14,947 bases of DNA from a virus (lineage: Duplodnaviria > Heunggongvirae > Uroviricota > Caudoviricetes). Below are positions 2,621 to 12,197 of this stretch, piece by piece. Location of the stretch: the IMG/VR virus record IMGVR_UViG_2778261635_000005; one strand, written 5' to 3'. A program made the translations under genes and the position numbers. How positions within the stretch are numbered: the first letter of the stretch is position 1; each line of letters opens with the position of its first letter. The notes under the pieces were generated by a model. That model was not told the origin of the DNA, ran no database searches, and worked only from the letters and a program-made list of their open reading frames with translations.

Positions 2621-3211
2621 ATGTCTCGAATTTTTGCTTACTGTCGGATATCAACGCTGGATCAGACCACCGAAAATCAACGCCGGGAAATCGAAAGTGC
2701 AGGTTTTAAAATCAAACCTCAGCAAATAATCGAAGAACACATTAGCGGCTCAGCAGCAACCAGTGAGCGTCCTGGTTTTAACCGGTTGCTTGCTCGCCTG
2801 AAATGTGGTGATCAATTGATTGTGACAAAACTGGATCGCCTTGGTTGTAATGCAATGGATATCAGGAAAACAGTGGAACAACTGACCGAAACAGGTATCA
2901 GAGTGCATTGCTTAGCATTGGGGGGCATTGACCTGACCAGTCCAACAGGAAAAATGATGATGCAAGTAATTTCAGCAGTCGCTGAATTTGAACGAGACCT
3001 TTTACTTGAACGCACTCATTCCGGGATAGTAAGAGCCCGGGGCGCAGGGAAACGTTTTGGTCGACCACCTGTGTTAAATGAAGAACAGAAACAGGTGGTA
3101 TTCGAACGAATTAAGTCAGGTGTAAGTATAAGTGCCATTGCCCGGGAATTCAAAACCTCGCGGCAAACCATTTTAAGAGCCAAAGCAAAACTTCAGACAC
3201 CTGACATATAA
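2621..3211 (+). CDS. pinQ: Serine recombinase (resolvase/invertase family), Pin-like
   Basis: 196-aa ORF; N-terminal catalytic region YCRISTLDQ (catalytic Ser), KLDRLG and GRPP motifs, C-terminal HTH ([18 protein letters not shown]); typical small serine recombinase architecture. Confidence 0.9.
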
Positions 3212-3308: not shown

Positions 3309-3884
3309 CTACGGCAGTGCTGGCCATTCAATATCCTGTGCAGTTGACGTATCAACACGGTTCAGCAATACCCGATACTTTTTCCATGCTTCCAGCAACG
3401 AGATTTCTTCCTCCGTTGCAATTTCCAGATCTGCAGCATCCTGAAGCGGCGCAATATGCTCACTGGCTACCTGCATCAGGCTGTTTTTTGTTTCTTCCGC
3501 CTCCCGGATCCGGAACAGTTTTTCTGCTTCCGTATCCTTCACCCAGGCTGTGCCGTTCCACTTCTGATATTCCCCTCCCGGCGATAACCAGGTAACATTT
3601 TCCGGTAACGGACCGAGTTCAGAAATAAATAACGCGTCGCCGGAAGCCACGTCATAAACCGTTTTACCCCGATGATCTTCAACGAGATGCCACGATGCCT
3701 CATCACTGTTGAAAACAGCCACGAAGCCTGCCGGAATATCTGGCGGTGCAATATCGATACTGTTTGCTGGCAGACCTGTATGAGGCGGAATATATGCGTC
3801 ACCTTCACCAATAAATTCATTAGTTCCGGCCAGCAGATTATAAATTTTTATGGTCCGTGGTTGTTCACTCATTCTGAATGCCAT
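3309..3884 (-). CDS. tfaQ: Tail fibre assembly protein (lambda Tfa-like chaperone)
   Basis: 191-aa [37 protein letters not shown]... recognised as the lambdoid Tfa family; its start overlaps the stop of the upstream tail-fibre ORF (TAATG), as in stf-tfa pairs. Confidence 0.9.
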
Positions 3885-8889: not shown

Positions 8890-9096
8890 CTTCATTTTCA
8901 CTTTTTTAAATCCAACGACAGACGGCTGGCATTTAAGTATTGTGAAATATTATCAAATGTAATCATCATTGATTTACAAAAGATACATTTTGCCCCGAAA
9001 GGATTCATGTCAGAAACATCAAAAGATGATGTTCTATACTGGGAACCATGACAACACGGGCATCTAAAGTGAATATGGTTTGTAATATTGTCTACC

Positions 9097-9309
9097 TCAA
9101 AGCGCCACTACATGAACAGCGGCAGGACCTTTAGGTCCGTTCTCAATACCAAATTCAACTTCCTGATTCTCAGTTAATGTTTTGAAATCGTTGCTCTGAA
9201 TTGCTGAGAAATGGACAAACACATCTTTGCTGCCATCTTTCGGCGTGATGAAACCAAAACCTTTTTCAGGGTTAAACCATTTCACTAAACCAGTCATTTT
9301 GTTAGACAT
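9097..9309 (-). CDS. cspI: Cold shock protein, CspA family
   Basis: 70-aa [41 protein letters not shown]... with RNP1 (KGFGFI) and RNP2 (VFVHF) motifs; AAGG RBS 7 nt upstream. Confidence 0.95.
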
Positions 9310-9418
9310 AATTATTACCTTTTGAAGAAATTAGCCCTTGGGCAGAATGGTCCGAAAAAAAATATCAGAGAGAAAAACCAACAAGGAAATCTCAAGAGGT
9401 ACAAATAATAAAATTATA
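9310..9418 (-). promoter_or_regulatory. cspI promoter and 5' UTR (candidate -10 TATAAT at 9418-9413)
   Basis: Perfect TATAAT about 100 nt upstream of the cspI ATG on the minus strand; CspA-family genes typically have long 5' UTRs. No clear -35. Confidence 0.35.
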
Positions 9419-9672
9419 ACAATGACTGCTTCAGATAAATTTGTAACAAACCAGAACACCATTAACGCATGATTAACCACCCATAGCAAGGATTACTTTT
9501 GTAAAGAAAAACACAGCAATGAAAGAATAGCTTTATTTATTAATAATAACGTGTCATTCTGATTAAGACCTTTTATCTTACCCTTAAGATTTCAGGAATT
9601 TTGGCTCATGGAAGAGTCCTTTTTATTTAAATTTTACATTCCGCGATGTAAATGTTCCGATTTAATATTACC

Positions 9673-11228: not shown

Positions 11229-11447
11229 ATCCTCACCCCGATGTACACGGATGGTGCAATATGTTTGAAAAGATCGGAGTCTACGGGGTAGTTTTGACAG
11301 CACACGCTGTTCTCAACGGCGCTAAAGAAACATACACATTAAAAATGTGAGTAATTATTTTGAAAGAAAGTCATATATAAAATAATAATACGAGAAATGT
11401 TTTCATATTTAGTGTACTGTATACGGCCATTTATACAGGAAAAGCCT

Positions 11448-11618
11448 ATGTCAGAACGTAAAGACTCAAAATCACGCCGTAATTATCTCGTTAAATGTTC
11501 CTGCCCAAACTGCACCCAAGAGTCAGAACACAGTTTTTCAAGAGTACAAAAAGGTGCCCTTTTGATCTGCCCTCATTGCAACAAAGTATTCCAGACAAAT
11601 CTTAAAGCTGTAGCCTGA
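11448..11618 (+). CDS. Small zinc-ribbon protein (56 aa)
   Basis: In-frame ATG within track ORF 11397..11618 with AGGAAAAG RBS 7 nt upstream; product MSERKDSKSRRNYLVKCSCPNCTQESEHSFSRVQKGALLICPHCNKVFQTNLKAVA carries CxxC...CxxC. Oriented against the late operon. Confidence 0.5.
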   Translation: MSERKDSKSRRNYLVKCSCPNCTQESEHSFSRVQKGALLICPHCNKVFQTNLKAVA

Positions 11619-11670
11619 TTGATTTTATTAGTAACAAGTATTTTTTATATTTTAATAATATATTTAAAGC

Positions 11671-11699
11671 AGATAATAAAAAACCCGCCTGAGCGGGTT
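11671..11699 (-). terminator. Strong intrinsic terminator ending the cspB transcript region
   Basis: Minus strand AAACCCGC-UCAG-GCGGGUUU stem followed by UUUUAUUAU; about 280 nt downstream of the cspB stop. Confidence 0.6.
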
Positions 11700-11981
11700 T
11701 GAGATTGTGGTGCTTTTTGTGGGAGTCATCCACTTACGCACTTTGTTTTGCCATGCCAGCAGTTAGCTTCTGCTGTAAAACTATTCATGCAGCAAACCTG
11801 CACTTCACCACAATGGTTAGCATACTTTTCCTGATTAAGATTTTGCCAAATATGCTGGCCATTGTTTCATGTATTGGACCTCCTTAATTTTTATTAAAGA
11901 AATCCAATATTCACTACTCTGTCCGTATCTCTACTCAGGCATCAGCCTTCTTCGTTATCGTATACAGACGAGCGATGAATT

Positions 11982-12197
11982 TTAATCAGTAATGATGACA
12001 TTTGCTGCTGCAGGACCTTTAGCACCACTCTCTATAGAGAAGGTAACCTTTTGACCTTCAAATAAGGTTCGATAATTATCATTCTGAATCGCAGAAAAAT
12101 GCACAAACACATCTTTACTACCATCAACAGGAGAAATAAAGCCGAAACCTTTATCAGCGTTAAACCATTTTACTAAACCAGTCATTTTATTTGACAT
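11982..12197 (-). CDS. cspB: Cold shock protein, CspA family
   Basis: 71-aa [41 protein letters not shown]... with RNP motifs; AAGGA RBS 7 nt upstream. Confidence 0.95.

Follow-up and report, generated by a model that had tools for sequence, protein, structure and literature searches.

A structured RNA with a conserved four-way junction in the 3′ untranslated region of cspB from prophage Qin and related mobile cold-shock genes

The control of cold-shock genes in Escherichia coli has been explained almost wholly through the 5′ untranslated regions (UTRs) of their messages, and Rfam family RF01766 (cspA thermoregulator) covers the 5′ UTR and coding region of these transcripts. Here we describe a second module, located at the 3′ end of cold-shock genes carried by phages and plasmids. 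It was studied in a 14,947-nucleotide (nt) stretch of viral DNA (IMG/VR record IMGVR_UViG_2778261635_000005; hereafter the window), which corresponds to the cryptic lambdoid prophage Qin of E. coli. The region of interest comprises the 311 nt (positions 11671–11981) that follow the cspB stop codon (11982–11984) on the minus strand, and a 1-kb query around it is 100% identical to many E. coli chromosomes. An earlier note, made from the sequence alone, had read these nucleotides as a small RNA (sRNA) derived from a 3′ UTR or as a leader-peptide region with two tandem mini open reading frames (ORFs), each led by a Shine–Dalgarno sequence (SD), rather than as spacer. We find that the region carries two conserved structured domains on the cspB-sense strand, and that the junction is invariably found on the 3′ side of cspA-type csp genes, whether these reside in prophages, on phage-plasmids or in chromosomal islands of Enterobacteriaceae. 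In E. coli K-12 grown at 37 °C, the dominant RNA 3′ end in the accessible part of the published data is located between the two domains. On balance, we favour the reading that the 311 nt are the 3′ UTR of cspB, that this is a structured RNA with a post-transcriptional role, and that the mini-ORFs are incidental.

Several described systems resemble this locus in part. The element and RF01766 occur on the same transcripts, and both are structured RNA portions of cold-shock messages. The 5′ UTR and coding sequence (CDS) of cspB match RF01766 (11966–12358, 158.8 bits), and the element-bearing csp genes that were checked all have leaders of this type. However, the RF01766 match extends no further than 11966, the element forms a distinct structure on the 3′ side without sequence or model similarity to it, and cspI of the same prophage has RF01766 and not the element. 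A second comparison is offered by enterobacterial sRNAs that derive from 3′ UTRs, such as CpxQ, SroC and MalH (reviewed in PMC9438474). Shared features are a segment past the stop codon, an upstream processing or 3′-end site and, in the Qin lineage, a U-tailed terminator. In contrast to those sRNAs, no 3′ end is mapped at the terminator here and no Hfq interaction records were found within the accessible parts of the data sets discussed below. In addition, the terminator is not conserved across lineages, and where those sRNAs have a simple seed and terminator, this locus has a conserved multi-helix junction.

Hairpins that protect mRNA 3′ ends provide a third precedent. Rho-terminated transcripts are said to be trimmed back to stable stem-loops (work attributed to Dar & Sorek 2018), and the 3′ end of cspE is reportedly protected by ProQ (attributed to Holmqvist et al. 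2018). Likewise, the abundant end at this locus lies 4–6 nt past a stable hairpin and is not associated with a U-tract. However, this comparison covers only a hairpin specific to the Qin lineage; the four-way junction and the conserved domain 1 fall outside it. The textbook junction-type riboswitch aptamer is SAM-I, which has a kink-turn (K-turn) and a pseudoknot. By analogy, the element might be likened to such aptamers in its four-way junction closed by a P1 stem, its invariant junction nucleotides, its candidate pseudoknot and a nearby GA-rich, K-turn-like loop. Unlike these aptamers, it is located 3′ of a gene, lacks a consistent downstream gene or expression platform, has no match to a riboswitch family in Rfam, and has its K-turn-like hairpin in a separate domain 40–90 nt upstream. 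Finally, the pairing of a U-rich strand with an SD through G·U and A-U pairs, as occurs in the Qin hairpin, recalls the FourU RNA thermometer (RF01795). That match (11875–11906) is weak, with a best score of 19.4 bits compared to a gathering threshold of 60, the ORF that would be regulated has 11 codons and is unconserved, and the 3′ end of the main RNA falls on its start codon in the accessible 3′-end data.

The element is a structured 3′-UTR RNA, or non-coding RNA (ncRNA) motif, that lies outside every Rfam family. Searches of the window with Rfam 15 at gathering thresholds returned only IS009 and two cspA thermoregulator matches. When matches with E ≤ 10 are considered for 11600–12000, the candidates are Trp_leader (21.7 bits versus a threshold of 41), AaHKsRNA82 (22.5 versus 51.4) and isrK (18.3 versus 50), and these fall mostly on the terminator. 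In two other lineages, the element likewise matched no Rfam family. ARAGORN detected no tRNA or tmRNA in the window, and, at 12 and 23 nt, the linkers of the junction greatly exceed those of a tRNA in length. Within the literature accessible to our search, we found no paper describing a cspB 3′-UTR element, and the RNA family attached to these mobile cold-shock genes is apparently undescribed.

The core of the element is a four-way junction formed by a closing stem (P1) and three hairpins (H1, H2 and H3), which together with an adjacent stem (H0) constitutes domain 2 (Table 1). The junction fold was first proposed by eye on an alignment of 29 distinct core sequences (A1) and was then predicted independently by RNAalifold. 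Standard base pairs occupy 98.8% of the 660 cells that represent junction pairing in this alignment. Seven pairs, or nine when an extension of P1 is included, have changed on both sides, and RNAalifold reports nine compensatory pairs. Examples of double changes are G-C/A-U and U-A/C-G in P1 and the outer pair of H2, which occurs as A-U, C-G or G-C. In H3, one pair alternates between A-U and U-A, and the fifth pair is found as U·G, C-G, G·U, U-A or A-U. None of 500 shuffles reached the covariation score of the junction, and sliding the pairing partners by one to three columns reduced the paired fraction to 20–63%. The earlier note had proposed a covariance analysis across related prophages; in the homologues compared here, helices of the junction, of H0 and of the outer stem of domain 1 are kept by compensatory changes. 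For the junction, these changes exceed both the slid and the shuffled controls and point to one strand, as expected of a structured RNA under selection. Many cells are G·U, and the closing pair of H1 (26–42) alone is G·U in 19 sequences. Each would become a C·A mismatch if the opposite strand were the one that folds, which identifies the cspB-sense strand as the functional one. A covariance model derived from the same alignment (R1) has a single match in the window, at 11700–11827 on the minus strand (137.9 bits).

Additional pairing within the junction is possible. A tentative pseudoknot of 3–5 base pairs (bp) might form between AGUUU (11782–11778; also AGUCU) in the linker that joins H1 to H2 and the loop of H3 (11728–11724). 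This candidate is compatible with all sequences and draws mostly on wobble changes. The H1–H2 linker is also a hot spot for changes in length. The Raoultella lignicola locus (L140) carries approximately seven tandem copies of AAGCCTGA there, and locus L192 has a 9-nt deletion; the remaining junction is intact. For 11 lineages, the conserved unpaired segments were compared with the 5′ UTR and CDS of the same mRNA by RNAduplex, which yielded weak pairing (−6 to −16 kcal/mol) at inconsistent positions.

Domain 1 is a long hairpin immediately downstream of the cspB stop codon. From 15 sequences, RNAalifold predicts 12 base pairs, eight of which have compensatory changes; these are found in the outer stem. 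This stem is 91.7% paired and has a covariation score of 0.428, compared to 0.230 for shuffles and 0.05–0.10 for slid controls, and the inner hairpin is paired in 76.7% of cells. A conserved internal loop (CGAUAACGAAGA / GAGUAGA, also CGAYAACGAWGA … GAGUAGA) flanks the small inner hairpin AGGC-UGAU-GCCU. Almost every sequence has GA dinucleotides adjoining this hairpin on either strand, and a GAUGA…CUGA arrangement is conserved, with an ambiguous register of the bulge and C-stem. By eye, the arrangement might resemble a C/D-box or K-turn motif. The loop as aligned in a second alignment (A2; GAUGA/GAAGA … CUGAGUAGA) could also be reminiscent of a purine-rich loop of the sarcin–ricin type. E. 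coli is not known to have an L7Ae-type K-turn-binding protein, and so domain 1 has no obvious partner. The domain is present in the lineages of Qin, phage Cyrano and the Klebsiella plasmids, in locus L133, and in the Enterobacter/Kluyvera group, and is absent from loci of the phage PHB10 type.

Between domain 1 and the junction are two further helices that differ in their distribution. The Qin lineage has a 16-bp hairpin (approximately −20 kcal/mol) whose pairing is kept by changes on either arm in 15 of 16 variants (GGAUCUC/GGAUUUC/GGAUCUU; GGAGGU/GGAGAU), with GGCGGU as the lone mismatch. Other lineages have unrelated hairpins or none at this position. Stem H0 recurs in nearly all lineages, with the consensus GGYCAGCA/UGCUGACC, a loop of 15–30 nt that is variable in sequence, and a spacing of 0–2 nt from P1. 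Its 22 distinct arm combinations contain zero to two mismatches except for a single-copy variant with three (L018). Wobble changes are frequent, and the Cyrano lineage exhibits a double compensatory change (CAGUU/AAUUG). As a whole, the 311-nt minus-strand RNA is predicted to fold at −102.8 kcal/mol, compared to −71.4 ± 5.6 for shuffled sequences (z = −5.6). The fold of the plus strand is weaker (−85.4 kcal/mol, z = −4.4).

A BLAST search with a 326-nt region detected the element in 1,622 of 5,426 complete E. coli genomes (approximately 30%), including K-12. Six Qin-like phage records have nearly the full region and two further records have its 3′ part only. The 3′ half alone (approximately 11816–11674) recurs at 75–82% identity in unrelated contexts that include phages Cyrano and PHB10, and roughly 100 phage-plasmids or plasmids of Escherichia, Klebsiella, Citrobacter and Enterobacter carry it. 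Approximately 180 further loci, which collapse to 27 clusters below 95% identity, came from scanning viral contigs and a single genome of each species for sequence patterns. These loci come from Escherichia, Shigella, Enterobacter, Klebsiella, Kosakonia, Kluyvera, Phytobacter, Leclercia, Raoultella, Atlantibacter, Pseudescherichia and Superficieibacter. There are 29 matches among the species-representative genomes, nearly all from Enterobacteriaceae and representing about a dozen genera. One contig of a metagenome-assembled genome of Veillonella parvula (L156) carries a Qin-type cspB and 3′ UTR that encode a CspB identical to that of E. coli, most likely as a binning or contamination artefact.

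The association with csp genes is strict. A csp ORF ends 128–221 nt upstream of H2 in every locus that has enough upstream sequence, save one that is cut by an insertion, and the upstream csp gene is sometimes unannotated in plasmid and phage loci. In the interrupted locus (L082, approximately 2900–3010 of a viral contig), which is the only one without csp upstream, foreign DNA that ends in …GGCCTGTGTCCATATTACGTGGGTAGGATCA, possibly an IS3-family end, interrupts the element where H0 meets P1. Across 55 pairs of lineages, the mean nucleotide identity is 81% for the junction, 73% for the csp CDS, 60% for the 5′ UTR, 57.5% for the linker between the stop codon and P1, and 50% for the 100 nt downstream. 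The junction value is approximately 76% when the 21 bases fixed by the search patterns are removed. Judged by identity, the junction is under stronger constraint than the csp CDS itself. The earlier view that the region is more than spacer is upheld by the fold z-score, the conserved fold, this ranking of identities and the terminator, which together describe a strongly structured and evolutionarily constrained RNA of the cspB-sense strand.

Table 1. Features of the cspB 3′ UTR and its surroundings, in window coordinates unless a locus is named. MFE, minimum free energy.
Feature	Position	Strand	Basis
Four-way-junction core, ~110 nt; with H0 forms domain 2	11704–11814	−	29-sequence alignment A1; RNAalifold
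P1, 8 bp with one bulge	11814–11813 + 11811–11806 paired with 11712–11707 + 11705–11704	−	Alignment A1
H1	11803–11787	−	Alignment A1
H2, loop AAGCUAA; the CAGCAG/CTGCTG hairpin of the earlier note (CAGCAG-AAGCTAA-CTGCTG)	11775–11757	−	Alignment A1
Invariant AAAGUGCGUAAG between H2 and H3	11744–11733	−	Alignment A1
H3	11733–11719	−	Alignment A1
H0, 8-bp stem, GGCCAGCA (11860–11853) with UGCUAACC (11822–11815)	11815–11860	−	Arm-pairing table
Domain 1, long hairpin from 2 nt past the stop codon	11909–11980	−	MFE fold; RNAalifold
Qin-lineage hairpin, AUUGGAUUUCUUUAAU-AAAA-AUUAAGGAGGUCCAAU, 16 bp including 3 G·U	11873–11908	−	MFE fold
Very abundant RNA 3′ ends	11867–11869	−	Term-seq, PMC7815308 (accessible part)
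Intrinsic terminator common to convergent cspB and ynfU	11671–11700	both	Terminator scan; good U-tract on minus strand
Mini-ORF1, MKQWPAYLAKS*, ATG at 11870; overlaps H0 5′ arm and loop; judged incidental	11835–11870	−	Sequence
Mini-ORF2, MLTIVVKCRFAA*, ATG at 11823; judged incidental	11785–11823	−	Sequence; codon-position variation
Antisense 44-aa ORF, rejected as gene	11753–11887	+	Survives at ≥ 45 aa in 4/18 loci
cspB CDS, cold-inducible cspA-type gene	11982–12197	−	ORF list; RefSeq annotation of K-12 and ECONIH5
ynfU, convergent zinc-ribbon small protein	11448–11618	+	RefSeq; Pfam PF23499; NCBIfam NF038384
75-aa ORF at other element loci	L007 1706–1933; L095, L129, L132, L136, L139, L145, L155, L186–L219	same as element	

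The 3′ ends of transcripts from this region can be examined in Term-seq data for MG1655 cultures grown at 37 °C under three conditions (Adams et al. 2021, eLife, PMC7815308, supplementary file 1), and statements on these data refer to the accessible part of that file. Window coordinates equal K-12 MG1655 coordinates minus 1,629,357, with no indel between the two sequences here. The data list minus-strand 3′ ends at 1641226 (window 11869), with 604,404 reads in LB at an optical density (OD) of 0.4, and at 1641224 (window 11867), with 1,233,565 reads in LB at OD 2.0 and 2,464,295 in M63. Both are classed as 'orphan'. For scale, other minus-strand counts in the same file are 304,673 at 20763 (also 'orphan') and 976,436 within sroA. 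The two ends are located 4 and 6 nt past the last pair of the Qin hairpin, on the U of the mini-ORF1 AUG and on the base after this codon. Because there is no U-tract at these positions, the end is best read as processed or trimmed RNA, where the hairpin would have stopped further degradation. Rho-dependent 3′ ends within the cspB 5′ UTR and ORF are also reported in this study.

The terminator recognized in the earlier note is present as AAACCCGC-TCAG-GCGGGTTT (11700–11681) followed by TTTTTTATTAT, 282 nt past the cspB stop codon, and its stem consists of eight pairs, five of them G-C. The same note had proposed a check for a discrete transcript end at 11671–11699. The Term-seq file lists no minus-strand end at the terminator (K-12 16410xx) in the three conditions, and the abundant end lies instead at the Qin hairpin. 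On the plus strand, an end at 1641060 (window 11703) places the terminus of the ynfU transcript 3 nt past the terminator hairpin. Given this end, and given that the hairpin is predicted to terminate cspB transcripts, the terminator is bidirectional in sequence, and its documented use is on the strand that has the poorer U-tract. A terminator is found after the core in L133 and in the lineages of Qin, Cyrano and the Klebsiella plasmids, but not in loci of the PHB10 or Enterobacter type.

These results bear on whether the region yields a trans-acting sRNA, which would be approximately 190 nt long (11866 to 11671) and would pair with its targets through AAAGUGCGUAAG or the AAGCUAA loop with the aid of Hfq or ProQ. 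Structured 3′ UTRs are bound by ProQ, and the cspE 3′ UTR is one example. A processing or 3′-end site lies immediately upstream in the accessible Term-seq data, the strong U-tailed terminator is retained in three lineages, and the conserved unpaired stretches are seed-like. Against this stand the lack of a listed minus-strand end at the terminator, the failure of the terminator to follow the core in other lineages, and the presence of four covarying helices around the proposed seed, which is atypical of Hfq-dependent sRNAs. Moreover, the accessible portion of the RIL-seq-derived table of Bar et al. 2021 has no node for the cspB 3′ UTR or for the cspB–ydfQ/essQ intergenic region and displays only cspF.cspB.IGR and the cspB CDS. 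No cspB entry occurs in the Hfq CLASH tables as far as these are accessible. The decRNA list has no entry at the region, a 2022 review of sRNAs derived from 3′ ends does not mention csp, and the minus strand carries no sigma-70-like promoter between 11700 and 11980 from which an independent sRNA could start. The 3′-UTR-derived sRNA envisaged in the earlier note has no backing from these interaction tables as far as they are accessible, and we regard a trans-acting sRNA as unlikely, although still worth keeping in view.

The other half of the earlier proposal concerned the mini-ORFs. Both are present as described, with TAAGGAGGT (11886–11878) preceding the ATG of mini-ORF1 by 7 nt and AGGAAAAGT located before the ATG of mini-ORF2. 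The pattern AAGGAGG-N4-10-ATG occurs once on the two strands of the 15-kb window, where 0.17 occurrences are expected and at least one is found in 32 of 200 shuffles. An SD and ATG of this quality is unusual for a 300-nt stretch, but was spotted after the fact. If translated, the tandem ORFs of 11 and 12 codons might serve as leader peptides, as small proteins, or as a means of coupling translation to the downstream hairpins and terminator. Consistent with this possibility, the perfect SD and start codon are retained with minor variants across Qin-type prophages, the frame of mini-ORF2 is open to the same stop position in most lineages, and this prophage also encodes the validated small proteins YnfQ and YnfR, downstream of the cspB paralogue cspI.

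We nevertheless consider translation of the mini-ORFs improbable. The SD of mini-ORF1 is the 3′ arm of the Qin hairpin and is fully paired within it, and the dominant RNA 3′ end falls on its start codon in the accessible data. Both SD and ATG are confined to the Qin lineage; the Cyrano, Klebsiella, PHB10 and Enterobacter-type lineages have no ATG at the corresponding site. A close relative from Escherichia sp. E1V33 (L143), whose CspB is 99% identical, lacks the SD hairpin, mini-ORF1 and H0, and keeps the junction and terminator. Mini-ORF2 begins within the 3′ arm of H0, its body consists of the 5′ arm of P1 and H1, and its stop codon abuts H1. In its frame, minority bases number 59, 35 and 25 at codon positions 1, 2 and 3, respectively. 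Variation is thus highest at the first position and lowest at the third, which is the reverse of a coding signature. Depending on the lineage, its start codon is ATG, GTG, TTG, ATA or GAA, L133 has lost the stop, and the codon in the H1 loop varies non-synonymously (TCT/ACT/TTT/CTT/GTT). Indels of 1 nt in the H1–H2 linker disrupt every longer frame on both strands. Neither mini-ORF is annotated in the K-12 RefSeq record, although ynfU, ynfS, ynfR and ynfQ are. A leader peptide or translational attenuator was rejected on the grounds that start and SD are not conserved among homologues and that third codon positions are the least variable, and the unit of two SD-led mini-ORFs did not survive as a coding feature. 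We infer that both mini-ORFs are by-products of sequences that build helices, and the locus serves as a caution that a textbook SD and start codon may arise in this way.

Two other coding interpretations involve longer frames. The opposite-strand ORF noticed earlier is present, in that a frame is open from 11699 to 11887 on the plus strand and contains the internal ATG at 11753. As a gene, this antisense ORF of 44–62 codons was rejected because linker indels shift its frame and because G·U pairs of the element become C·A mismatches on that strand. Similarly, PHB10 is annotated with a sense ORF of 41 aa, rich in cysteine, that spans H0 to H2. It is frameshifted in the close relative L047, and the compensatory changes in H1 are non-conservative in its frame (Cys to Arg). 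A broader version of these proposals holds that the plus strand is functional, through the hydrophobic ORF or the ynfU 3′ UTR, or that the region is the remnant of a small Cys-rich gene like that of PHB10. An antisense ORF of 46–62 aa is open in 4 of 18 loci, the PHB10 annotation exists, and ynfU makes use of the terminator in the accessible Term-seq data. The proposal is very improbable in view of the G·U pairs (19 at one position), the broken frames in both directions and the Cys-to-Arg change, and in view of the persistence of the element where ynfU is missing.

Alternatively, the junction might be a riboswitch- or thermosensor-like device that senses a ligand or temperature and thereby controls read-through into, or translation of, the next gene on the same strand. 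This gene is a holin/lysis cassette in Qin-type phages and, in other genera, a conserved 75-aa ORF. The multi-helix junction, its invariant nucleotides, the possible pseudoknot and the nearby K-turn-like hairpin would suit such a device, as many riboswitches have this architecture, and in several Enterobacter, Klebsiella and Leclercia loci the 75-aa ORF starts approximately 130 nt after H2 without an intervening terminator. However, the downstream neighbour varies, being a terminator and convergent gene in the Qin lineage and in phage-plasmids and a convergent ynfU in many other loci. The element shows no conserved expression platform and matches none of the riboswitches in Rfam, and the 75-aa ORF also occurs apart from it. 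We judge such control of a downstream gene to be quite unlikely. The conserved 75-aa ORF (MIKVLVFFNAESCKVMTVLEGISSIRQEYPNGEE…SQEILDAARKYL), for which neither Pfam nor NCBIfam gives a match, is a downstream same-strand neighbour of the element in many viral contigs and loci of Enterobacter, Klebsiella, Kluyvera and Leclercia, and L215 has it without csp or the element.

Returning to the reading of the region as a structured cspB 3′ UTR with a post-transcriptional role, the module may act in cis on the processing or stability of the csp transcript, which is our best guess at its function but a specific proposal that we hold with less confidence than the general one. In such a mechanism, transcripts from the cspB promoter would enter the 3′ UTR and extend at most to the terminator (11681–11700), which would insulate the downstream holin and lysis genes from cspB transcription and also serve the convergent ynfU. 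The RNA would then be cut, or trimmed in the 3′-to-5′ direction, back to the Qin hairpin, and domain 1 together with this hairpin would cap the remaining cspB message against 3′ exonucleases. H0 and the junction might fold on their own into a module that is recognized by a protein or a ribonuclease or that binds a small ligand. This module could set the fate of the transcript through processing or decay, perhaps in a temperature-dependent manner, or could be released as a structured ncRNA. The invariant unpaired nucleotides of the junction argue for a partner rather than for a generic stabilizer.

A number of observations weigh against this reading or reduce its force. An important function for domain 2 at 37 °C would predict a 3′ end at the terminator, and none is listed in the accessible Term-seq data. 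Most homologues were gathered with exact patterns that fix 21 core bases, and as a consequence part of H2, the H2 loop and AGUGCGUAAG are invariant by construction; only the lineages derived from BLAST and the loci reached by way of the adjacent 75-aa ORF escape this bias. The latter loci contain near-canonical or visibly decayed copies only (L190, L191 and L192). The decayed copies at L190 (2294–2420) and L191 (331–452) have many broken pairs and score 61 and 72 bits, compared to approximately 147 for canonical copies. The csp gene of L190 has lost a conserved tryptophan (KSF for KWF), and that of L191 looks intact, which indicates that the element is not indispensable to csp. The effective sequence number of R1 is 1.29, as the family is young, narrow and restricted to Enterobacteriaceae. 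Because its lineages are related, counts of alignment cells overstate the evidence, and roughly a dozen independent compensatory events are represented. Lastly, we infer the role in cis from position and from one data set at 37 °C.

A more ambitious extension is that the K-turn-like hairpin and the four-way junction, with its loop–junction pseudoknot, form a sensor or platform for a ligand, for temperature or for a dedicated protein, which mobile elements have attached to cold-shock genes to control them post-transcriptionally. We consider this unlikely, although not remote. If true, K-12 itself would contain a riboswitch- or aptamer-like device in a 3′ location, or a new class of protein-binding ncRNA. 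If the element controls processing or decay, it would represent a missing layer of cold-shock mRNA regulation and would help to explain why csp cassettes travel on mobile elements. Were it to bind a specific partner, it would count as a novel class of structured RNA in the best studied of all bacteria. The element is directly testable in K-12, where the abundant 3′ end is already mapped.

The genes that surround the element are those of a lambdoid lysis region. On the minus strand, ydfT (antiterminator Q) precedes cspB, the studied region follows, and next come the lysis genes essQ-ydfR-rrrQ-rzpQ. The plus strand carries cspF, which is divergent from cspB, and ynfU, which is convergent with cspB. 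CspB matches the Pfam domain CSD (E = 9.8e-32). The frame of ynfU is already open from an ATG at 11397 (73 aa; 11397–11618, plus strand), upstream of the 56-aa protein that RefSeq places from 11448. This gene often accompanies the RNA element and is absent from the phage-plasmid loci that carry it. The K-12 RefSeq annotation has nothing between ynfU and cspB; the small proteins annotated around the site (ynfU, ynfS, ynfR and ynfQ) derive from ribosome profiling or tagging.

The second cspA-thermoregulator match in the window (9070–9455, minus strand) belongs to cspI, downstream of which the small proteins ynfQ (62 aa) and ynfR (21 aa) are annotated. A scan of the window with R1 found no four-way-junction element after cspI, and the 3′ regions of the two csp genes of this prophage are therefore quite different. 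Elsewhere in the window, Rfam family IS009 (RF02111) has a full-length match at 3343–3541 on the minus strand (221 bits versus a gathering score of 117), which overlaps a 191-aa ORF (3309–3884) in the tail-fibre/invertase part of the prophage.

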